Of a DNA stretch of 64,000 bases, positions 1,704 through 50,385 are shown in pieces. The stretch covers positions 19,063 through 83,062 of the forward strand of contig CAZGMS010000148.1 in the NCBI GenBank assembly GCA_964526915.1, in the 5' to 3' direction. The stretch comes from an uncultured Nitrospirales bacterium. Its GTDB lineage: Bacteria > UBA10199 > JADGCS01. Under the pieces are notes generated by a model that saw nothing but the letters and a program-made list of their open reading frames with translations, made no database searches and was not told where the DNA came from. The stretch's first letter is position 1. Each line of letters starts with the position of its first letter. Position numbers and translations under genes: made by a program.

Positions 1704-3320
1704 TCAAAAGCCCAACTGTACTTGAACTTGTCCCACATGATAAACGCGGTCATCGGGACCAACAATGCCATCTAAATTAAAGGTATATTCAGCTTGAATT
1801 TTTGCGTTTTTTCCAGCAAAATAATACCCCATGCAGAGTGTGCCCGCATATTCATTTGCGGAATCACCATCGATATCACCACCCGATAACGTAGCTACAT
1901 TCGGCGCAAAAAAACCATCGTCGTTCGCACCATCCATCATCAAGTTTACACCTGCATCTGTGATATCATCCAACAAAGCATCGCCCCTAAGTGCAATTTC
2001 AAGTTTTTTAGGAATCACGAAATAGCTAGCCATAACAGTTGCCCCAACATCCGTTTGAGCTCTTGTAAATTGGTCAGGATCTACCTGCCGATAATTCCCG
2101 CCGACAATCAATGAAAAACCTTTGTATTTAAAACGGGTGTCTCCTGCGCCACCGAGCACCCTTGCCTGTGTCCCATCATCCATGTGACCAAAAGCAACTC
2201 CAAACCCGAATGTAAATATGGGGCTTTCTGAATAGGCAATATCTCCTTGGGCCGAATCCATTTTTCCCAGCACATTAAAATCGAACCTGCTAGTATAAAA
2301 CATCTCGGTGTTGGTATTTTCTTTGTAGGCCAAAGCCTGGCCGTTGGCCACGGACAATTTATAACTAAACCAACCAATTTCTCCAGTGGTTTCCAAACCA
2401 ACAGCATCGCCGTAGTCGAATCTGAACGCTGTTAAAGGCACCGAAATAAACATGAGCCCACCAGAACTCAAGACAATATTAGAAATCCCGCCCGGTTGTT
2501 TTGTAGCATTCACAATAAACGCGGGGTGAAATGCATAGCCAATAGCAAAAGTGTAAAGCGAGGTAGAACTAGCCGGAGAAAGTGTAATGTTGTAGGTAAA
2601 TTTTTCACTAAACGCATTTCCATCGATATTGAAATAAAGTCTTCTCAAGTTAAATGTGTGCCCATCCTCCAGGTCCTCCGCAAGAATAAAAGAATATTTA
2701 AACTGCAATCTGCCCGAAAAAATAATTTTAAATTTACCATCTTCGCTTTGTATAAAAAAACCTCCGTCGTATCCCGATGACTTGCCTTCTCCCTTGCCAG
2801 TTCTCATTTCAGCAAGTTCTTGTCTTAGATTGCCTATTTCTGTTAAAATGTATGATGTGTTATACTGGTTGGACTGGAAAGAGTGTTCTCTTCGTTGTTT
2901 CGGTTTTTTTTCTTCTGTCACAGGTTCTGGGATTGAAGATGACGCTGGTTCCGCCACCGGTGCAACAGCTTCAGGCTGAACCCGTTGCACCACAGGTGTA
3001 TCCTGCGTTTTCACCACATTGATAGTGGGTTGTGGTGGGGATGTGGCTTCTTCGACCACCTCGGTCTCGGGGTCCGCTGAAGGCGCTGTTGTATCGGAAG
3101 GCAGGGGTTTTAAGGAATTGTAATACGATTCGGGCAGAGTATTGGGGACATCCGTTGTGACTACAATGTTTTGTTGCTGGGTGGCGGCTGGGGAAACCTC
3201 TGCCACAACAGGCTCAATCCCGTTATAGGCCCGCCGTTTGATCTGGGCACTGGCCAGAACAGTGGCCGACAACAACACGCTCACACAAAAAATACAAATG
3301 ATCACGATATAACGTTTCAT
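1704..3320 (-). CDS. outer-membrane beta-barrel porin-like protein with Pro/Glu/Thr-rich linker and coiled coil
   Basis: Signal peptide MKRYIVIICIFCVSVLLSATVLASA; low-complexity P/E/T linker; alternating beta-strand pattern; C-terminal VQVQLGF with terminal Phe as in OMP barrels. Upstream ORF extension (IPAFAGMT) is translation of a hairpin repeat and was trimmed to ATG 3320. Confidence 0.5.
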   Translation of the reverse strand: MKRYIVIICIFCVSVLLSATVLASAQIKRRAYNGIEPVVAEVSPAATQQQNIVVTTDVPNTLPESYYNSLKPLPSDTTAPSADPETEVVEEATSPPQPTINVVKTQDTPVVQRVQPEAVAPVAEPASSSIPEPVTEEKKPKQRREHSFQSNQYNTSYILTEIGNLRQELAEMRTGKGEGKSSGYDGGFFIQSEDGKFKIIFSGRLQFKYSFILAEDLEDGHTFNLRRLYFNIDGNAFSEKFTYNITLSPASSTSLYTFAIGYAFHPAFIVNATKQPGGISNIVLSSGGLMFISVPLTAFRFDYGDAVGLETTGEIGWFSYKLSVANGQALAYKENTNTEMFYTSRFDFNVLGKMDSAQGDIAYSESPIFTFGFGVAFGHMDDGTQARVLGGAGDTRFKYKGFSLIVGGNYRQVDPDQFTRAQTDVGATVMASYFVIPKKLEIALRGDALLDDITDAGVNLMMDGANDDGFFAPNVATLSGGDIDGDSANEYAGTLCMGYYFAGKNAKIQAEYTFNLDGIVGPDDRVYHVGQVQVQLGF

Positions 3321-39853: not shown

Positions 39854-39926
39854 GGGGATGTAGCTCAATTGGTAGAGCGCTTGAATGGCATTCAAGAGGT
39901 AGTCGGTTCGATCCCGATCATCTCCA
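39854..39926 (+). tRNA. tRNA-Ala (anticodon GGC)
   Basis: Cloverleaf folded by hand: acceptor GGGGATG/CATCTCC with G3:U70; D-arm GCTCAATTGGTAGAGC; anticodon stem CTTGA/TCAAG with loop ATGGCAT; T-arm GGTTCGATCC; CCA not encoded. Confidence 0.85.
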
Positions 39927-40135
39927 CGAAAAATGGCTCGCGTTAGCGAGACATTTTGAGTGAGCCCCGCGATGAGCGAAGCGAATTTTGCGGGGCCAGA
40001 CTCGCTCGCCATCTCGTGGCAAGCCGCAACTGTTGCACACCAACTATCACTGGCAATTTGGCAGGACATGAATTATACGCCCCATGGGGTAACGATGTGA
40101 AAAAGTACGACAAAAACGTAAAGGCCATTCAGGAT

Positions 40136-41060: not shown

Positions 41061-42991
41061 AAAAACCTTCTTGGAACAAAATAAAATCGGACGAGGTTTT
41101 CAACATTTCGGGCTGGGGCTCACCCTATTTCTCGATCAACCGTCACGGTGACGTGGCTGTTCACCCACGGGGAAAAAAGAATCGCTCATTCAGCCTAAAA
41201 ATATTGGTCGATCAGATTATCGAAAGAAGCATCCAAACACCTTTCCTGCTCAGATTCAATGATATCCTGCTTCACAGATTGGCCTGCATCAAGCAGGCCT
41301 TCGAAACTTCAATCTCCGAATATGATTACAAAGGAGGACACTCCATCATTTATCCCATCAAGGTCAACCAACAAAGACATGTAGTAGAACGCATTGCGGA
41401 CTTTAATCAAAAAAACAACAACGGCCTGGAGGCGGGTTCAAAGCCCGAACTCCTGGCCATCATGGCGCTTTCCAGGGATCCCAAAACCCCCATTGTGTGC
41501 AACGGCTACAAAGACGAAGAATATTTTGAAATCGCCCTCATGGGCATGAAGATCGGCAAGCAGATATACCCTGTCATCGAAAAATATTCGGAATTCGAAA
41601 CCTTGATCAAGGTATCAAAAAAACTCAATATCAATCCCGAATTTGGTGTCCGCATCAAGCTCTCTACGAAAGGATCGGGCCGCTGGCAAAAGTCTGGCGG
41701 GTTTCGTTCGAAGTTTGGACTCACCATCAATGAAGTCGTAAAAGGCGTCGGCGTGCTGAAAAAAGCAGGCCTGCTCGATGGCTTCAAACTATTGCATTTT
41801 CACCAAGGCTCGCAAATCACCAACATCAGCACTATCAAGAGTTCGCTCAAGGAAGCGGGGCGCGTGTACGTCGAGCTGATTAAGCTGGGTGTGCCTCTGT
41901 CCATTTTAGATGTCGGCGGCGGTTTGGGCGTTGATTACAACGGAACCGGCACGAATGATGACAGCTCCGCCAACTACACTTTGCAGGAATACGCCAATGA
42001 CATCATCTTTCAGGTCAAAGAAATCTGCGATGAAGCTGGTATTGATCACCCCACCATCTTTACCGAAAGCGGACGCGCGGTCGCGGCACATCACTCGGTG
42101 CTCGTTTTTGAGGTGTTGGGGTTTTCCGGTTATGATCGCTCGGACCTTCCCACAAAAACAAAAAAAGCCTGGACCAAACCACTCAAGGAATTATTTGAAA
42201 TTCGCCAAGCCCTCAAGTGGGAAAAAGACAGCACCCGCACGATGGAACATTATCACGATTCCGTCTCTAATTTTCAAGAATGTCAAAATCTGTTTGGACT
42301 CGGCTACATGAACATCGAGGAGCGGGGCCTGGCGGAGGAGTTTTATTTCAGTTCCCTCAAGCGCTGTCTGACCATTCTGGAAAAAGACGAAGAATACAAA
42401 AACGAAGTGGCCGACCTGGAAGAGACACTGTCTGACACCTACTTTGGCAACTTTAGTGTGTTCCAATCATTACCCGACCATTGGGCCATTGGCCAACAAT
42501 TTCCAATCATGCCCATTCACCGTCTTAACGAAGAACCCACCTCCTCCGCCATCATCGCCGACATCACCTGCGACAGCGACGGCAAGGTGGACCGCTTTGT
42601 GGGCGAAGGTGAAGGCAAACGAACCATCAAACTCCACCCACTGGATGATAAGGAATATTATCTCGGCGCGTTTCTGGTGGGTGCGTATCAGGAAACCCTG
42701 GGCGATTTGCACAATCTTTTCGGAGACACCAATGCCGTGCATGTGAGCATCGACAATAAAGGCCGACCGCTCATTGACACAATTGTCAAAGGTGATACCG
42801 TGAGAGAAATTCTGGGTTATGTACAGTACGACGTGGAATCTCTGTTGGACAAAATGCTCAAGCAGGTGGAAAAGGCCGTACACAAAGGGCTTATCTCGTT
42901 CAAGGAGTCAGGCACGCTTTTTAAATTCTACGAAACCGCCATTGAAGGTTACACCTATCTGGAAGACTGGGTGACACGGGGTGAGTATTGA
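41057..42991 (+). CDS. speA: biosynthetic arginine decarboxylase
   Basis: PLP Lys motif YPIKVNQQ, GSKPEL, CDSDG; about 640 aa SpeA architecture. Confidence 0.85.
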   Translation: MKKPSWNKIKSDEVFNISGWGSPYFSINRHGDVAVHPRGKKNRSFSLKILVDQIIERSIQTPFLLRFNDILLHRLACIKQAFETSISEYDYKGGHSIIYPIKVNQQRHVVERIADFNQKNNNGLEAGSKPELLAIMALSRDPKTPIVCNGYKDEEYFEIALMGMKIGKQIYPVIEKYSEFETLIKVSKKLNINPEFGVRIKLSTKGSGRWQKSGGFRSKFGLTINEVVKGVGVLKKAGLLDGFKLLHFHQGSQITNISTIKSSLKEAGRVYVELIKLGVPLSILDVGGGLGVDYNGTGTNDDSSANYTLQEYANDIIFQVKEICDEAGIDHPTIFTESGRAVAAHHSVLVFEVLGFSGYDRSDLPTKTKKAWTKPLKELFEIRQALKWEKDSTRTMEHYHDSVSNFQECQNLFGLGYMNIEERGLAEEFYFSSLKRCLTILEKDEEYKNEVADLEETLSDTYFGNFSVFQSLPDHWAIGQQFPIMPIHRLNEEPTSSAIIADITCDSDGKVDRFVGEGEGKRTIKLHPLDDKEYYLGAFLVGAYQETLGDLHNLFGDTNAVHVSIDNKGRPLIDTIVKGDTVREILGYVQYDVESLLDKMLKQVEKAVHKGLISFKESGTLFKFYETAIEGYTYLEDWVTRGEY

Positions 42992-43016
42992 AAAACCGGT
43001 TCCCTGTTCACTAAAC

Positions 43017-43046
43017 TAGACTTTATATAGTCTGATTTATAAAGTT
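43017..43046 (+). terminator. weak intrinsic terminator after speA
   Basis: AGACT-TTATAT-AGTCT hairpin followed by a T-rich run. Confidence 0.35.
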
Positions 43047-43093
43047 TGGTTTATGATTGGGACTACAAATCGTTTTGCGGCGGTAAATGTTGG

Positions 43094-43178
43094 GGATCAC
43101 CAGTTTTTTGCCAAAATCGTTTATGGGCAAACTATTCATGTTCATAAAATGATTGGCCTATGTGCACATTGAGGGCGA
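43094..43178. repeat. ~85-bp direct repeat, copy 1 (about 85% identical to 44884-44968) containing palindromic operator ATGTGCACAT
   Basis: GGGGATCACCAGTTTTTTGCCAAAATCGTTTATGGGCAAACTATTCATGTTCATAAAATGATTGG...TGTGCACATTGA versus the second copy; 10-bp perfect palindrome at 43160-43169. Confidence 0.7.
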
Positions 43179-43226
43179 AAATAACGCTTTTTAAATTTGA
43201 TTGTGTAGGTTTTTTTTACATCACTA

Positions 43227-43255
43227 TTGACAAATATATTTACATTGCTGATAAT
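43227..43255 (+). promoter_or_regulatory. sigma70-type promoter for the HTH-Panacea gene
   Basis: TTGACA (43227-43232), 17-bp spacer, GATAAT (43250-43255); 27 nt upstream of ATG 43283. Confidence 0.55.
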
Positions 43256-43282
43256 GGATGAATCAAGAACGGGGCTCCTGAT

Positions 43283-44056
43283 ATGCTGGCAAAATTCATT
43301 CAACAACAACGCCACCTGCACAAGCTGACGCAAGGCCATCTCGCCTCGCTGCTGGGCATTTCACGCCCCACCTACATTCAAATCGAACGCGGCGAACGGG
43401 AATTGACGATCACTGAAGCGAAAAAACTGGCAAACGTTTTCGATCTTTCTTTCGAAGATTTTCTAGCTGGCAAAACTCATCAACACAAAGTGATTCTGGA
43501 ACAGAGTAAAAAAGTGGATGCTCCGATGACAAAACTTCAAATCCGCATCACAGAAAAAAATCTTGGTAAGTTCAAGCAGGTTTTGTTGTACATTCTGGGA
43601 AAAGTCGGGGGCAAACCGAACGTGGGCGAAACCGTTCTCCACAAGCTGCTCTACTTCATCGATTTCGATTACTACGAAAAATATGAAGAAAATCTGATGG
43701 GAGCCACCTACATCAAAAATTATCACGGCCCCACTTCCGTTGAGCTTGGCGCGGTTCTCAAGGATATGCAGAAAAACGGAGACCTCGAGGCCGTAACCAG
43801 CAACTATTTTAAGTACGAACAAAAAAAATATCTGCCGCACAAAAAGGCAAATCTGGCCCAGCTTTCGGCGCGCGAGATTGAACACATCGACAACGTCTTG
43901 GCCAGGCTTTCGGATAAAAATGCCAAAGAGATAGAAAATTATTCCCACGACGACATCCCGTGGAAAACAGCCAAAAAAGGCGAACCACTATCATACGAGA
44001 GCGTCTTTTATCGTGATGAAAAGTATTCCGTAAGAAATTATGACGATACGCTTTAA
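43283..44056 (+). CDS. XRE-family HTH fused to Panacea (DUF4065) domain, putative type II antitoxin
   Basis: N-terminal HTH_3 (LTQGHLASLLGISRPTYIQIERGER); C-terminal GGKPNVGETVLHKLLYFIDFDYYEKYEENLMGATYIKNYHGP matching DUF4065/SocA-like Panacea. Confidence 0.6.
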   Translation: MLAKFIQQQRHLHKLTQGHLASLLGISRPTYIQIERGERELTITEAKKLANVFDLSFEDFLAGKTHQHKVILEQSKKVDAPMTKLQIRITEKNLGKFKQVLLYILGKVGGKPNVGETVLHKLLYFIDFDYYEKYEENLMGATYIKNYHGPTSVELGAVLKDMQKNGDLEAVTSNYFKYEQKKYLPHKKANLAQLSAREIEHIDNVLARLSDKNAKEIENYSHDDIPWKTAKKGEPLSYESVFYRDEKYSVRNYDDTL

Positions 44057-44378
44057 CGAGTTGCCGTCTTTTGCAAAAGAATTTCGGCGACTCGCAAAAA
44101 AATACAAATCATTGCCAGCGGATCTAGAAGAATTTAAACACATTCTCTCTTCCCTGCCTTTGGGCACCAACAAACATTTCAATGTCATCACAAAAAATGA
44201 GCAATGCGTCGTTCTGAAAGCGCGCTTTTTTTGTCGCTACCTGAAAGGTTCATCGTTGCGAATCATTTACGGGTACAAAGAAAAAACAGCCTCCATCGAT
44301 TTCATCGAAATATATTTCAAGGGCGAAAAAGAAAGTGAAGACCGAAATAAGATTTGTGAATATTTAGAATCCATTTGA
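44040..44378 (+). CDS. small RelE/ParE-superfamily-like putative toxin
   Basis: 112 aa, overlaps the upstream gene by 17 nt; C-terminal SLRIIYGYKEK...IDFIEIYFKGEKE resembles the RelE/YafQ beta-sheet core. Confidence 0.35.
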   Translation: MTIRFNELPSFAKEFRRLAKKYKSLPADLEEFKHILSSLPLGTNKHFNVITKNEQCVVLKARFFCRYLKGSSLRIIYGYKEKTASIDFIEIYFKGEKESEDRNKICEYLESI

Positions 44379-44379
44379 T

Positions 44380-44979
44380 TTACACCGACGCCACCATCAA
44401 GCGGGCGCGCTCTGCCAAACTGAGGCTGCTCAAGCCAAAAAACCGGTAAAGACGCTTGAAATATTCCACATCACCCAGAGCATCACGATACCCATTGAGC
44501 CTCACCAAACTTCCCAGCGGCAAAGAAATAACGGGACGGAATTTGAACTCCAAATCCATTCCCTGTTCCGCATAAATCGTCTCCAATTGATTTTGAATGA
44601 AAAACAATCTTTCGACAGGTTCATTGATTGCGGGCATATCGCGCATCCCCATAATCTGGCGTACAACAACCACAAAATCTTGAGGCACAGAATCCAGTTC
44701 AAATATCTCTCGCGCGTTCTCTGTTACATAAGAAACCATTTTCTCCTGTGAATCGGGTGTTACCGCAAACAACAACCGGAAAAGATTCTTGAAAAGCCCA
44801 ATCCCCTGATTGGGCCCTGTCTCTATAGCAGAATCAAAACTACGATCAAAACGAGCATAATCTGTTCTGACCAGATGTTTGGGGGTCACCAATTTTATGC
44901 CAAAATCGTTTATGGGCAAACTATTCATGTGCATAAAATGATTTGTTGACTTATATGCACATTGATATAAAATGTGCAT
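44380..44979 (-). CDS. hypothetical protein (5' end and promoter duplicated in the 43094-43178 repeat)
   Basis: 199 aa with no recognised motif; N-terminal codons MHMNSLPINDFGIKLVTP are also present at 43094-43150 (reverse strand). Confidence 0.3.
   Translation of the reverse strand: MHILYQCAYKSTNHFMHMNSLPINDFGIKLVTPKHLVRTDYARFDRSFDSAIETGPNQGIGLFKNLFRLLFAVTPDSQEKMVSYVTENAREIFELDSVPQDFVVVVRQIMGMRDMPAINEPVERLFFIQNQLETIYAEQGMDLEFKFRPVISLPLGSLVRLNGYRDALGDVEYFKRLYRFFGLSSLSLAERARLMVASV
44884..44968. repeat. ~85-bp direct repeat, copy 2, with operator ATATGCACAT-N9-ATGTGCATAT overlapping a TATAAT box
   Basis: Inverted repeat 44953-44982; TATAAT at 44979-44984; lies between divergent genes 44380-44979 (-) and fic (+). 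Confidence 0.7.
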
Positions 44980-44989
44980 ATAATGTTTC

Positions 44990-46069
44990 GTGACTTTTTA
45001 TGCACATTTTATGAATTTTGAAACCAGAAAAAACAAAATCATTGAATTTCTTAAGACCTATGGACGCATCACCAGCAGAGATGTCCAGGGTTTGACAGGA
45101 GGGCATCGTAACACAGCGCTTCAGGATTTGAAAAAACTTGAGGAAGCGAAGATGATCCAGGCGTTTGGTGTCGGCAAAGGCACCTATTATCAACTCGTCC
45201 AACAAATCATTTTTGAGCCTGCTGTCATCCTGAAAATCTTTGAGAAAAAACAAAAAGAAAAGCTGGAAAAATATTTCAAACAGGCCGGCCGTCGTCCGGT
45301 TTTCTTTGATAGGGTTAAAGACTTGGCCTTACAGGCGGATTTTTCTGTGCCAGACCTTTTCAATCAAAAAATCAATGTGTTTAATTCGCGTGTTAATGAC
45401 ACAAAAAAACTTTTATCTGCTCACGAACAAAAAAGAAAAAAACAGAAACTGGTGATCGATTTGTCCTGGGCCTCTTCGCACATAGAAGGCAACACCTATT
45501 CTCTTTTGGAAACGGAGAGCTTGATCGAACATCAAGAAACGGCTCATGGCAAAAAGTATACCGAAGCCAAAATGATTCTCAATCATAAACAGGCCATCGA
45601 GCACATCAGGAAATACAAGGGTTATAAAACATTGCACAGAAGAGGGATTTTTGAATTGCACCAGATTCTTATTGATGGTCTGGATGTTGAAACGGGTTTG
45701 AGAAAACAGTTGGTCCGCATTTCAAACAGCAGTTTCGTGTCTTGTGACAATGAATTCCAGATCACCCAGACGCTGGATGAAATCATAACGGTGATCAATG
45801 AAAGAGAATCGGTTCTGGAAAAAGCCGTGATGGCTAATCTCCTCGTGGCCTTTCTACAACCCTTTGCTGACGGGAACAAAAGAACATCGCGCATGCTGGG
45901 CAACGCCATTCTGGTGTCACACGGGTTGTTGCCCATTTCATTTTCACACACACCGAAAGACGATTACATCAAAGCCATGCTCTTTTTTTACGAAAAGCAG
46001 AATCCCCGCTACTTTATGTCCCTTTTTTTCAACGAGCTGAATCAATCGTTTGTGGAGTACATTGGTTAA
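44990..46069 (+). CDS. Fic/Doc-family protein with N-terminal winged-helix and degenerate Fic motif
   Basis: Fic core ...SHIEGNTYSLLETE... and motif QPFADGNKRTSR (canonical HPFx[DE]GNGRxxR: His replaced by Gln, GNGR by GNKR). Confidence 0.65.
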   Translation: MTFYAHFMNFETRKNKIIEFLKTYGRITSRDVQGLTGGHRNTALQDLKKLEEAKMIQAFGVGKGTYYQLVQQIIFEPAVILKIFEKKQKEKLEKYFKQAGRRPVFFDRVKDLALQADFSVPDLFNQKINVFNSRVNDTKKLLSAHEQKRKKQKLVIDLSWASSHIEGNTYSLLETESLIEHQETAHGKKYTEAKMILNHKQAIEHIRKYKGYKTLHRRGIFELHQILIDGLDVETGLRKQLVRISNSSFVSCDNEFQITQTLDEIITVINERESVLEKAVMANLLVAFLQPFADGNKRTSRMLGNAILVSHGLLPISFSHTPKDDYIKAMLFFYEKQNPRYFMSLFFNELNQSFVEYIG

Positions 46070-46205
46070 TAAATTTTTCTTTCAGATAGTCTTGAGATAC
46101 TTTTGATAAACCCAAGAGGAATATTGGCGTGAATGTTTCTTCAGTTTTTTTGTTCAACCGGTCACAATAAAGCATTTCAGTAAAGAGAGGCAAGACACTC
46201 CTACA

Positions 46206-46236
46206 CTCCTAATTATTATTTTTTAGGAGCTTTTTG
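46206..46236 (+). terminator. intrinsic terminator downstream of fic
   Basis: CTCCTAA-N10-TTAGGAG hairpin followed by CTTTTT. Confidence 0.4.
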
Positions 46237-46754
46237 AGGAATTCCAGATCCTGCTTATCACGTGAGTCTCCTCGCGACGTGACGGCCAGTTGCTTGAGTT
46301 GAAAAAGGTGTGTTGGGGAAGCAATCCAAAATGTCTTTGAATCTATTTTTAGTTTTATGGCTTCTTTGAGGAGCTTTGACGCTGAAATGGGAAAATCGAA
46401 TAGAAGGTCAATTTTTAGGCCTGTTTTGCTATTATAAAAGAAAGCACTTGTTGGCTTATTAATTTTTAAATGATGAATTGCCTCCTGTTTAGTTTTAAAA
46501 GTCTTTATAATTTGGCCACGATCGTTGATCTGAGACGCAAGAACAAATCCTTTTTTATAAAAGGTCTTCACGAATTCATCAATCCGGTGGCGTGGATTTT
46601 TTATCACGAAATCAACATCCCTGGTCACTCGCTCAGAACCAAGAATCACAAGTGCCAAGCCACCGATCATGACAGGCCGCCAACCCTGCACAACAAGATC
46701 GTTGAGAATATCGCCAATCATTGAAGGATCAATGAGACTGATTTTGTTTTTCAT
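46209..46754 (-). CDS. nucleotidyltransferase-fold protein (putative)
   Basis: GGLALVILGSERVTRDVDFVI fits the minimal NTase hG[GS]...DxD pattern; about 180 aa. Confidence 0.35.
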   Translation of the reverse strand: MKNKISLIDPSMIGDILNDLVVQGWRPVMIGGLALVILGSERVTRDVDFVIKNPRHRIDEFVKTFYKKGFVLASQINDRGQIIKTFKTKQEAIHHLKINKPTSAFFYNSKTGLKIDLLFDFPISASKLLKEAIKLKIDSKTFWIASPTHLFQLKQLAVTSRGDSRDKQDLEFLKKLLKNNN

Positions 46755-46974
46755 AAGCAGATCTTAAAGCGTCGATGGTGTTGACATAGGCAAAGTTCAA
46801 TTTAATCCGCTTGGCTGCCAGTAGCGAAAAAGCACGGGCCTGGCCACCCATCGAGGCAATTTCTTTCTTTCTTTCAGGTAACAATTTTTTTGCCCGAGCC
46901 TGACCTCCCAAACTCCCCAGTTTTTTGGCCATGCTGTTGATTTTCATGATAATATTATACTTCGCGCTAAGCAT
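46729..46974 (-). CDS. KGG-repeat general stress protein-like (YciG-like)
   Basis: Two KKLGSLGGQARA / KKEIASMGGQARA repeats resembling the KGG stress-protein repeat; true start probably ATG 46947 or 46932. Confidence 0.35.
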   Translation of the reverse strand: MLSAKYNIIMKINSMAKKLGSLGGQARAKKLLPERKKEIASMGGQARAFSLLAAKRIKLNFAYVNTIDALRSAYEKQNQSH

Positions 46975-47072
46975 AATTTCAAGAGACTTTTTCGATAATA
47001 GGTGGGGGGCTTTTTTGTCGACAGAACCAGAATGGCCTGCCGTTACCGTAACATTGACCGATCAGGAAAAAA

Positions 47073-48521
47073 TTATTTTCTCTGATAATCAAAAATATTC
47101 CCGCGTCCAAAGATCCAATCGGGATCCCACTTGTTTTTGATGGCCAACATCTGGCGGATGACCTTGCTGTTGTGTTGCACCACCAGTAAATTGCGCTTGA
47201 TCTTGCCGAGTCCATGTTCGCCAGCTACGCCGCCATCATAATAAACAACTTGTTCGCATTGTTGCCGCACAAAATCCAGGGCCTTTTGCCTCTGTTCGGC
47301 GTCTTTGGTCAAAAAGTTCCAATGAGGGTGGCCATCACCAATGTGTCCAAAAACAATGAAAGGGATTTTGAGTTCATTGGCTTTTTTATACACGCGTGTC
47401 ATCATATCGTACAGATGTTGCGGTGGCACCCACCAATCGGTCCCCACCTTCCCGCCACCTTGCTCCGTGTATTTCATGTATTCCTCATTGACCATGAGCG
47501 GAATGTAATGACGGCTTTCGTGAATGTCCTTCATCTGCTGATCGGTCTTGGCCAAAAACACACGATCAATGGCCTCTTGGTCGCCAACTTGTCGGTAGAT
47601 TTGTGTCAGCAACATGTACCAAACATCCAGCTGTTCTTTAAAATCGCTTTCGTGGGCATATTCTTCTTTGACGTACAAAAAACAAGCCTCATTGTGGAGT
47701 TCCGTGGGGCACGCCGGACAGGCCTTGAAATAGTCCACCGCACCCGGCCCAATCAGCTCAAGGGCCACAGGAAGCCGTTCCTTTTTTAACAACAAGGTGG
47801 CCGCCTTGATGCATTTTTCAAAGCCCGTGAAGGGCAACAAGAGCAAAAACTCATTAGAGCGCTCTCTCTTGATGATCTTCAATTTGATTTTTTTGATCAG
47901 ACCCAAGGTGCCCTCAGAGCCAATCAATTCGTCGATCTCTTCGCCCTCTAAACAATAACCAGCGGTATTTTTGAGGATCATCATGGGCACGCGCTTTGCC
48001 CGAGATAATATTTTGATCTGTCCGTCTGGACGTAGAACCTCGATCTCGATCACATACTTGCGCGTGGCACCGTATTTGAGACTTCCCTCACCAGTAGCGT
48101 TGGTCGCTACCGTAGAGCCCACAAGGGCCTCCTGGTAACTGGTGGGATCCGGTGGATAATAATAACCCGCCTCCTGAACCGCCTTTTTCAAATCTCCCAA
48201 GATGACCCCCGGTTCAGTTACCACAAAGGCCTCGCCCGTTGCAGAGTCCGTACCAATATCGAGAATCTTGTTTTTGAGTGACAGGGCAATGGCCACACCG
48301 TTGTCGGCAACGGACGCACCTGTCATGGATGTCTGTGAGCCACAAAAGGTCACGGGGATTTTATGAGCGTGACAGTGCGCAACAACTTCCGCGACCGTCT
48401 CCCAATCACCCGCGCGGTACACATAATCGGGTTTGCCACGGTACACAGAATCCTTGGAATATCTTTCGAGCATTTCCGGATCGGAATAAAAATAGTCCTC
48501 AATGTTGATCTTGATTTTCAT
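47073..48521 (-). CDS. FAD-linked oxidase (GlcD / D-lactate dehydrogenase family)
   Basis: PCMH-type FAD-binding N-terminal domain (VTFCGSQTSMTGASV) and FAD-oxidase C-terminal domain. Confidence 0.7.
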   Translation of the reverse strand: MKIKINIEDYFYSDPEMLERYSKDSVYRGKPDYVYRAGDWETVAEVVAHCHAHKIPVTFCGSQTSMTGASVADNGVAIALSLKNKILDIGTDSATGEAFVVTEPGVILGDLKKAVQEAGYYYPPDPTSYQEALVGSTVATNATGEGSLKYGATRKYVIEIEVLRPDGQIKILSRAKRVPMMILKNTAGYCLEGEEIDELIGSEGTLGLIKKIKLKIIKRERSNEFLLLLPFTGFEKCIKAATLLLKKERLPVALELIGPGAVDYFKACPACPTELHNEACFLYVKEEYAHESDFKEQLDVWYMLLTQIYRQVGDQEAIDRVFLAKTDQQMKDIHESRHYIPLMVNEEYMKYTEQGGGKVGTDWWVPPQHLYDMMTRVYKKANELKIPFIVFGHIGDGHPHWNFLTKDAEQRQKALDFVRQQCEQVVYYDGGVAGEHGLGKIKRNLLVVQHNSKVIRQMLAIKNKWDPDWIFGRGNIFDYQRK

Positions 48522-48536
48522 AGGCGTCTTTCCCTA

Positions 48537-49295
48537 TCAAAACACAAACAACCCCGACCCTCCATCAACTTCAAAAATCTGCCCCGTCGTGTAATTGGCT
48601 TGTTCACTGCATAGAAACGTGATGGTGTTGGCGATGTCTTCGGGTTTGCCAAAGCGTCGCATGGGAATTGATTTTTTCATACGCTCCAACATGTCGCCGC
48701 GAATGAAGGTCATGGCAGCTTCGGTTTCCATGATCCCCGGCGCCACAACGTTCACTGTGATGTTCTTGCGCGCTCCCTCCAAGGCCAATGATTTGGCCAA
48801 TCCGATGACGCCCGCCTTGGTCGCCGAATAACTCGTTTGGCCAGAACCACCGCGCGTTCCCGCCACACTGCTCATAAAAACCACTCGTCCCCATTCGTTC
48901 TTTAACAAATGGGGCCAAACCGCACGTGTGACATTGGCAGAACCAATCAGATTGACCTGTATATCACGATCCCATTTTTCGACCGGGATGTCGGCGAAAA
49001 AGCCAACCGTGTTGAGAATGCTGGCGTTGTTGATCACAATGTGAAGACCTCCCAAGTCTGTCACAATTTTTTCTACCGTCTTGGTCACATCGTTCACAGC
49101 GGCGATATCGCACTGGTAGCCCTTGATTGCTATTCCGAGGGCAGACAATTCGCTGACTGTTGCCGAAAGATCGGCGACGTCCATCACGGCAATCTTGGCC
49201 CCGGCCTTACCCAACGCCAGAGCATCGGCCCTTCCCAACCCTTTTCCCGCCGCACCCGTAATGAGCGCCACTTTTCCTGATAAATTGATATTCAT
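48537..49295 (-). CDS. short-chain dehydrogenase/reductase (FabG-like)
   Basis: TGAAGKGLG Rossmann motif, NNAS, catalytic S...YSATK; ATG 49295 with AAGGAG SD. Confidence 0.8.
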   Translation of the reverse strand: MNINLSGKVALITGAAGKGLGRADALALGKAGAKIAVMDVADLSATVSELSALGIAIKGYQCDIAAVNDVTKTVEKIVTDLGGLHIVINNASILNTVGFFADIPVEKWDRDIQVNLIGSANVTRAVWPHLLKNEWGRVVFMSSVAGTRGGSGQTSYSATKAGVIGLAKSLALEGARKNITVNVVAPGIMETEAAMTFIRGDMLERMKKSIPMRRFGKPEDIANTITFLCSEQANYTTGQIFEVDGGSGLFVF

Positions 49296-50009: not shown

Positions 50010-50385
50010 GGGGCCGATAACGGTTTCGACGGGGATGACGCGTGTATGATCGGCAGGCCGAGTTGAAGGCACTCGTTAAACGACTTCACAAATCCAATTG
50101 CAAACGATAACTTTGCACAGGCACCTGAGCTTGCTCTGGCTGCTTGACCTGATCTCATAGTAGATCACGTTCATGTTGTGGATCGCCTCAGTCGATGGCA
50201 TGGGCGTAACCAATTGGGGCTCGCTTGGTAGTTTTGTCTACTGGCTACCGGGCTAAATAAAAATGGGCTGGCCAAAAAAATCCGGTCACGGGGAAACTTT
50301 TTTGGTAAGATTCAAACTGTGGCTAAGCTTGTAGAAGGCATACACAAACATTTTCGGACGTGGGTTCGACTCCCACCGGCTCCAC
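50010..50385 (+). ncRNA. ssrA: tmRNA (ssrA), one-piece
   Basis: 5' GGGGCCGATAACGGTTTCGACGGGG; 3' GGACGTGGGTTCGACTCCCACCGGCTCCA(C) tRNA-like end; internal tag reading frame GCA AAC GAT AAC TTT GCA CAG GCA CCT GAG CTT GCT CTG GCT GCT TGA gives ANDNFAQAPELALAA. Confidence 0.85.

Follow-up and report, generated by a model that had tools for sequence, protein, structure and literature searches.

Panacea (PanA, DUF4065) antitoxins and their toxins make up PanAT, which are type II toxin-antitoxin (TA) systems (Kurata et al. 2022, PMC8832971; Ernits et al. 2023, PMC10440598). Pairs of a PanA antitoxin carrying a helix-turn-helix (HTH) region and a RelE-fold (MqsR-like) toxin have been described, and the HTH was suggested to mediate autoregulation (PMC8832971, PMC10440598). 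One such pair lies between two direct repeats of about 85 bp, upstream of a gene for a Fic-family protein (fic), in a stretch of 64,000 nucleotides (nt) from an uncultured Nitrospirales bacterium (contig CAZGMS010000148.1, positions 19,063 to 83,062); this stretch is referred to as the window, and positions given are those of the window. It joins the known PanAT systems as a new and uncharacterised member: a small toxin gene is preceded, and overlapped, by the gene of a SocA_Panacea antitoxin with an N-terminal HTH. It differs from the described systems in its toxin family, which matched no MqsR, RelE or ParE sequence model and may lie outside the published PanT clusters.

The repeats recall elements of another kind. 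Phages 21 and e14 at icd, and islands that target tRNA genes, are associated with surrogate duplications of gene ends at their integration sites; there as here, inserted DNA is flanked by imperfect direct repeats that copy a neighbouring gene's end or control region, and that gene is intact on one side. The present locus differs in having no integrase, an insert of just 1.7 kb and no attachment (att) core in common with the analogous loci. The preferred reading, to which a probability of roughly 0.65 was assigned, is that a foreign segment of 1.7 kb was put in upstream of fic with duplication of about 85 bp of the target, leaving the left-hand repeat as a relic and the TA operon regulating itself. 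On this reading, the repeat is an ordinary, though tidily kept, footprint of an insertion by horizontal transfer, and not a regulatory device or shared circuit. The locus would represent a dated-looking snapshot of a TA module landing in a chromosome and bringing a scrap of its former neighbour gene, the regulatory DNA of the recipient being part-duplicated, with one copy kept by selection and the other decaying. By-products of the analysis were a large unannotated toxin family of predicted RelE fold with strict HTH-Panacea partnering, a conserved architecture of the presumed antitoxin operator, and a conserved four-site operator in a Fic subfamily with Gln for the catalytic His. Features are collected in Table 1.

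Table 1. Positions of the features in and around the islet; aa, amino acids; ORF, open reading frame; AF2, AlphaFold2
Feature	Position	Strand	Basis
speA	ends 42991	+	ORF list, profile search
speA-to-R-left spacer, taken as original target DNA	42992..43086		ORF list, no similarity to DNA left of R-right
R-left	43087..43172	+	Repeat search, BLASTN, seven-sequence alignment
TA promoter-operator, TGTAGG-N5-TTTACAT-N5-TTGACA(-35)-N6-TTTACAT-N4-GATAAT(-10)	43204..43255	+	Promoter scan 11/12, regular expression, alignment
HTH-Panacea (PanA-type) antitoxin, 257 aa	43283..44056	+	Pfam, neighbourhood of 80 loci
112-aa toxin, predicted RelE/HigB2-type fold, overlaps antitoxin gene by 17 nt	44040..44378	+	AF2, Foldseek
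ORF X, 184 aa from ATG 44934 (open to 44979 = 199 aa)	44380..44934	-	ORF list, phmmer, tblastn
3' fragment (~166 codons) of giant M48/ABC1-kinase-like gene	44380..44878	-	phmmer, MAFFT, tblastn
R-right, intact copy	44875..44965	+	Repeat search, BLASTN, seven-sequence alignment
fic operator array, four half-sites	44927..45007	+	Octamer count, promoter scan, inverted-repeat search, orthologues
Fic-family protein, 352 aa from ATG 45011 (gene caller: GTG 44990)	45011..46069	+	Pfam Fic, AF2, Foldseek
Second TA-like pair: 81-aa protein, then overlapping 181-aa DUF2204/AbiEii-like nucleotidyltransferase	46209..46974	-	Weak Pfam and PADLOC matches
FAD-linked oxidase (FAD_binding_4/FAD-oxidase_C in L003 gene table)	from 47073	-	ORF list, L003 table

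The direct repeats and the control region of fic

The direct repeats of about 85% identity described in the initial annotation were real. The repeat search aligned 43090-43154 with 44879-44943 (94% over 65 nt) and, beyond a 4-nt indel, 43153-43172 with 44946-44965 (85% over 20 nt); self-comparison by BLASTN widened the pair to the limits of R-left and R-right, at 87.9% identity over 91 columns, and the similarity ended abruptly at either side of the alignment. An independent megahit assembly (k141) from another sample, L003, was 100% identical to the window over 42469-49180 and spans both repeats; therefore, both diverged copies are real. That an assembly artefact or a chimera of mixed strains faked the duplication is of negligible probability. 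Short-read contigs from other samples (L004, L005) do break inside the repeats, as such an explanation would have it, but L003 crosses both copies, and these are told apart by an indel and by differences at fixed positions. A 31-mer common to the two, GCCAAAATCGTTTATGGGCAAACTATTCATG, occurred exactly twice in the window and not at all in 100 shuffles. With just two copies per 64 kb, a dispersed repeat or miniature inverted-repeat transposable element was ruled out for the window. An Rfam scan of 42800-47200 returned sub-threshold chance matches only, so no known RNA element accounts for the repeat.

R-right consists of some 50 nt of upstream DNA, followed by operator site 1 of fic, a -35 element (TTGACT) and operator site 2, and it is contiguous with the remainder of the fic control region. 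The array has four half-sites (ATGTGCAT at 44927-44934, ATGCACAT at 44955-44962, ATGTGCAT at 44972-44979 and ATGCACAT at 45000-45007), which form two inverted pairs ATGTGCAT-N20-ATGCACAT, 45 nt apart; all four ATGTGCAT octamers in the window, counted on both strands, were confined to it. The candidate fic promoter has its -35 (44946-44951) between sites 1 and 2, while the -10, at 44968-44973 or 44979-44984, adjoins site 3. For comparison, seven loci (L086-L092) were available with Fic orthologues of 55-71% amino acid identity and with neighbours that were all different. Pairs of the form TGTGCA-N22-TGCACA occurred no more than 105 nt upstream of the Fic start in all seven, five had two pairs with the same 28 / 16-20 / 28 spacing, and L091 showed a symmetric TGTGCC...GGCACA variant in one pair. 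Since the array is kept before fic orthologues with unrelated neighbours, it was taken as the control region of fic itself.

The Fic domain (PF02661) scored 45.5 bits in the Pfam search. The AF2 model of the protein (pLDDT 90.8) began with a winged helix of H-H-H-beta-beta order, which was also backed by weak HTH profile matches here and in relatives, and matched FICD, BT_2513 and SoFic at E values of 1e-8 to 1e-6 (Foldseek). In its Fic fold, N-terminal winged helix and palindromic sites over the promoter, as expected of an autorepressor, the gene resembles those of Fic/Doc proteins with a DNA-binding winged helix. It differs from canonical Fic in its motif, QPFADGNKRTSR (pattern QPFxDGNKRxxR), where the canonical HxFx(D/E)GNGRxxR has given way to Gln for the catalytic His and a Doc-like Lys for Gly. 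Q and K occupied these positions in 119 of the 120 Fic homologues retrieved for the motif survey (P0122-P0241), and proteins of this pattern with an N-terminal winged helix look like a conserved non-canonical subfamily. The modelled winged helix may repress fic through the array, and fic probably regulates itself.

Sites 1 and 2 were aligned among seven sequences: R-left, R-right, L086-L089 and L092. In R-right and in all the orthologue loci, site 1 is ATGTGCAT, site 2 is ATGCACAT and 20 nt separate the two. Only R-left departs from this: its site 1 reads ATGTTCAT, the spacer is shorter by 4 nt, TTGGCC replaces the -35 TTGAC, and site 2 is altered to the derived ATGTGCACAT. About half of the differences between the two repeats affect the operator, and at each such position it is R-left that has the derived state. 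As the repeat ends at 44965, before the -10, R-left is without a complete promoter. Judged by this alignment, what R-left duplicates, in decayed form, is evidently the distal half of the promoter-operator of fic.

It had been proposed initially that the duplication placed the same palindromic operator before the TA operon and fic, and that the two HTH proteins may share their regulation. Both of the palindromes concerned are present: ATGTGCACAT, perfect over 10 bp, lies at 43160-43169, 58 nt upstream of the TA -35, and ATATGCACAT-N9-ATGTGCATAT lies at 44953-44981, overlapping TATAAT at 44979-44984; related sites do flank the fic promoter. However, the second arm of ATATGCACAT-N9-ATGTGCATAT falls beyond the end of the repeat. 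The site array follows fic across genomes, and not the TA module, being found before fic orthologues that have no TA neighbour. R-left, for its part, is mutated in site 1, spacing and -35, and the TA -35 lies over 50 nt downstream of it. Among 70 TA upstream regions, a ATGTGCAT-type site was seen only in that of the window (by eye, with no formal count), while 29 of 80 loci have a different conserved block before the TA genes, one which the TA operon of the window carries as its own. A shared operator or common regulatory logic is highly improbable on this evidence, which corrects a tempting regulatory inference.

The toxin-antitoxin module and the adjoining open reading frame

The TA promoter has the form TTGACA-17-GATAAT. 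An alignment of 32 copies gave the consensus TGTAaA-N6-TTTACAT-N5-TTGACAA-N7-TTTACAt-N5-TAnaaT for the upstream block. Across related loci totalling 1.1 Mb, a regular expression for the core of this block had 31 matches, and 29 of these lay no more than 450 nt upstream of an antitoxin gene; the window was matched once, at 43215. The block lies in unique DNA to the right of R-left, and therefore the module brought its own promoter. The TGTAaA/TTTACA block is presumably the operator for the antitoxin HTH, which may repress the TA operon through these repeats.

The identification of the antitoxin as HTH-Panacea was borne out by Pfam: HTH_3 matched residues 6-60 (E 3e-12, over the gathering score) and SocA_Panacea (PF13274/DUF4065) residues 119-228 (E 2e-17, 64.6 bits with the cutoff at 25.7). 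When each species was scanned in a single genome, 157 loci were obtained, 80 of which were kept; these come from Patescibacteria, Brocadia, Nitrospira, Gammaproteobacteria and others. In every one of the 80, a full-length HTH-Panacea homologue lay directly upstream of the toxin gene and overlapped its start. Neither ORF X nor the nucleotidyltransferase nor the 81-aa protein (Table 1) was ever found near the pair in these loci. This distribution marks the antitoxin-toxin pair as an apparently self-contained, widely travelling module.

A small gene ending in ...KHKQIHxNRKKRGKI* directly precedes the antitoxin gene in L008, L030, L035, L046, L062, L066, L067, L078, L082 and others. Its motif, HHIxPxxxGGxDxxxNL, is HNH-like by eye, and its position suggests a three-gene variant of the module.

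The 112-aa partner had been described as weakly RelE-like and possibly novel. Its sequence matched nothing in Pfam (E<=10), NCBIfam (E<=1) or PADLOC, and a 34-sequence profile found no sequence match among PDB chains. The AF2 model, made from a 34-sequence alignment (pLDDT 87, pTM 0.82), has beta-alpha-alpha-beta4-alpha topology. The top 21 Foldseek matches in the PDB were all RelE, HigB2 or YoeB (probability 0.98-1.00), the best being an archaeal RelE (1wmi_A; E 1e-4, TM 0.64 by query and 0.79 by target); the HigB2 structures 8a0x and 5ja8 were also matched, as was HigB1. The likeness to the ribosome-dependent mRNases RelE, HigB2 and YoeB is one of predicted fold. The differences are an identity of 14-24% to the solved structures and a Panacea partner, not one of RelB/HigA type. 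According to the model, the toxin belongs to the RelE superfamily by fold and, by sequence, to an unannotated family, so that the RelE-like label held for the structure but not for any RelE sequence model. It may act as a RelE-like translation-dependent mRNase neutralised by the antitoxin. As to novelty, the family is unannotated but no one-off: 760 homologues at 56-77% identity were found in very diverse metagenome-assembled genomes, so that it exceeds 760 proteins, and wherever a locus was examined the partner was an antitoxin of this type. The basic or aromatic residues listed as invariant in the family are K45, H46, K60, R62, Y67, Y77, E90, Y92 and K94.

Followed leftward from 45430, a contig from another sample, L001, agreed with the window at 99.9% identity as far as 44176; past that point it has 84 nt unrelated to the window (positions 1256-1339 of L001), which share the reading frame of the toxin's C-terminal two-thirds. 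The contig from a second sample, L002, ends at the same point, 44174. The junction at 44175/6 in L001 could be a strain variant, an insertion sequence junction or a chimera.

ORF X had been regarded as a gene whose first ~18 codons were duplicated in the repeat. The minus strand of both copies does encode MxMNSLPINDFGxKLVxP in an open 18-codon frame, the stub in R-left being MNMNSLPINDFGKKLVIP. X matched no family in Pfam, NCBIfam or PADLOC, and a word-indexed homologue search gave one 99% identical copy only; exhaustive phmmer (1.8 billion representatives) was needed to reveal homology with giant proteins. It returned 25 matches, and residues ~19-175 of X matched the far C-terminal ends of proteins 1400-2600 aa long, several of which have Peptidase_M48 or ABC1-kinase matches in Pfam; one of the proteins is annotated 'M48 family metalloprotease'. 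The giant family (P0242-P0265) combines M48-peptidase and ABC1-kinase-like segments with a conserved C-terminal region. Alignment by MAFFT showed that, in these proteins, a kinase-type catalytic loop (FDPDGHxGNWLID) and then KRLVRVDYAQ come before the matched region. In X, homology starts at K19 with KHLVRTDYARF (DFG-like motif VRTDYA), which is precisely the boundary of the repeat. When the giant proteins were aligned with the window by tblastn, the alignments ended at 44874-44886, the same boundary. X has neither the catalytic loop nor the N-lobe and does not qualify as an ABC1/UbiB-like kinase; the ABC1 profile in P0260 and P0246 stops about 30 residues inside the X-like region. Because homology begins at the repeat boundary and the catalytic loop is missing, X was interpreted as a chimera of 18 repeat codons and a gene fragment, the latter probably left over from the gene next to the module in the donor. 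The repeated codons are real, but no genuine gene start was duplicated. A plausible 199-aa 'gene' is exposed in this way as a chimeric ORF.

If X were instead a genuine standalone gene, with its 5' end and promoter in the repeat, R-left would be the relic of a deleted tandem X paralogue. The ORF is intact over 184-199 codons and 99% conserved in other samples, and the same frame is open in both repeats, all of which would fit. Apart from near-identical copies, however, the homologues are all C-termini of giant proteins, with homology from the boundary onward and the kinase loop missing in X. The start codons of X are part of fic operator site 1, and this site is also conserved in loci that lack X. 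The sequence ahead of the candidate starts shows nothing evident of a Shine-Dalgarno kind, and the consensus promoter scan gave no minus-strand site upstream of them. A standalone gene is accordingly considered very doubtful.

A probable insertion upstream of fic

Under the preferred reading, the segment 43173-44874/8 would have entered the upstream region of fic, and ~85 bp of target would have been duplicated: operator sites 1 and 2 with the -35 between them, and ~50 bp of DNA upstream of these. The insert would consist of the TA module, with its own promoter-operator, antitoxin and overlapping toxin, and of the 3' remnant of the giant kinase-like gene, which presumably adjoined the module in the donor genome. 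R-right would have stayed joined to sites 3 and 4 and fic, and may still serve fic repression; R-left would be a stranded, decaying relic, and the TA operon would be transcribed from its own TTGACA-17-GATAAT promoter. The 199-aa ORF would have arisen since the fragment stays in frame through the repeat to ATGs in site 1.

The original joints would be those of the left flank with the repeat, on the left, and of the repeat with sites 3 and 4 and fic, on the right; the right-hand joint is supported by the conservation of the fic array. The novel joints would be 43172/43173 and 44874-8/44875-9, the second of which shares ATGT(T) microhomology with the original left joint (by eye from the alignment). 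A single insertion of 43173-44874 with duplication of the repeat explains the structure. The analogous tight brackets around the module in other genomes and the low G-C content of the islet, both described below, also speak in its favour. To this extent, the suggestion in the initial annotation that the TA cassette was inserted by a duplication event has stood.

Several points weigh against this reading. No empty-site allele (speA, a single repeat, fic) was found by exact-protein look-ups and one metagenome scan: look-ups with Fic and speA gave the same arrangement or nothing, and the scan with Fic gave one distant locus. The direction of the event, like its mechanism, was therefore inferred and not observed. 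The repeat copies are 9-12% diverged, which points either to an old event or to copies from two diverged lineages, and an old event fits poorly with a gene fragment that is still an open frame. The divergence could possibly reflect relaxed selection on R-left, given the derived state of its operator positions; possible routes by which two lineages could have contributed are homology-facilitated illegitimate recombination, Campbell-type integration or a surrogate target borne by the element. The palindrome ATGTGCACAT, new in R-left, could in principle still bind protein, and X might be expressed and functional. Nor is there a transposase, integrase or terminal inverted repeat to account for a duplication of 85 bp: profile searches of the islet detected neither a transposase domain in its ORFs nor an integrase, be it within 43173-44874 or elsewhere, and according to the repeat search the insert does not end in inverted repeats. 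The fixed, short duplication of a transposon is not seen either, the repeats being ~85 bp here and 50-226 bp at other loci.

Repeats around the module in other genomes and the setting of the islet

Self-BLAST showed that direct repeats of at least 40 nt bracket the module in 15 of the 80 loci. Four brackets are tight: L009 (57 bp, the downstream gene's 5' region), L054 (50 bp, 82%, the last 15 nt of tRNA-Asn plus terminator), L069 (83 bp, 87%, the first ~17 codons of an FAD oxidoreductase gene) and L072 (226 bp, 94%, the 3' end of a gene, on the complete chromosome OY843752.1). Those of L033, L079, L008, L016, L034, L046, L055 and L062 are looser; over tight and looser loci, the locus-specific repeats span 50-250 bp. 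Tight bracketing affected 4-6 of 73 modules (L033 and L079 being the looser two), against 0.15-1.5% of shifted pseudo-modules in the same loci, an enrichment with nominal p = 5e-6 to 7e-4 for controls that are not independent. A stricter definition of tight bracketing in the first test gave 3 of 65 modules; the count depends on the window definition, and therefore a range is given. Terminal repeats borne by the element were ruled out, as the repeats of different loci are unrelated. A search of the literature for TA modules flanked by long target duplications found nothing relevant.

These brackets bear on a further explanation, that of a decayed integrative element. An island with a surrogate target copy would have entered the fic upstream region, the repeats would be duplicates of attL/attR type, and the integrase and most of the cargo would later have been lost, leaving the addictive TA pair and the gene remnant. 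The repeats are indeed imperfect (~88%) and made of the control region of a gene, X resembles leftover cargo, and the brackets elsewhere are typical att-type targets (tRNA-Asn 3' end with terminator in L054, gene 5' end in L069, 3' end in L072). Yet the ORFs of the islet yielded no integrase or recombinase domain, and no common att core is present among the repeats of different loci. In the four other genomes, the brackets hold just the 1.1-kb TA module and ~100-200 nt; such tight brackets would need neat independent deletions on either side. A decayed element is therefore thought unlikely.

The preferred reading of an insertion with target duplication can be extended from the window to the module at large, in tentative and rather doubtful terms. 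The HTH-PanA/RelE-fold pair with its promoter-operator could be a minimal mobile unit of ~1.25 kb that makes locus-specific target duplications of 50-230 bp with no recombinase of its own. In many phyla, such a unit may insert beside promoters, tRNA genes and the ends of genes; a recombinase-free mechanism could be homology-facilitated illegitimate recombination or a templated insertion in which re-priming is offset. If this were true, the window would be one case of a general, undescribed route by which TA modules spread. The recurrent long duplications around the module hint at a mobility mechanism and are the one potentially novel thread.

In three of the 80 loci the module starts no more than ~130 nt downstream of a tRNA gene: L058 (tRNA-Ser, 3050-3139), L084 (tRNA-Pro, 3047-3123) and L054 (tRNA-Asn, 456-530). 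Of these, L054 alone has a duplicated tRNA end within the fetched flank. The flanks of L016, L022, L033, L046 and L062 (from Brocadia, Nitrospira, Elusimicrobia and Sumerlaeota) contain several families of direct repeats of 40-250 bp, which also bracket neighbouring small genes in the manner of a cassette array; these repeat-rich arrays may be a different phenomenon.

The module of the window is part of a small TA/defence-type islet (43000-47000), in which G-C content is 0.36-0.45 against 0.47-0.51 in the flanks. The spacer after speA was without similarity to the DNA left of R-right in the alignment, and an inverted-repeat search identified an AT-rich hairpin within it (43012-43053). In the second TA-like pair, the 81-aa protein has KGG-like repeats, and all profile matches of the pair were weak. 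A tRNA-Ala(GGC) gene (39854-39927) and a tmRNA gene (50010-50385, tag ANDNFAQAPELALAA) lie to either side of the wider region, neither of them adjoining the islet.

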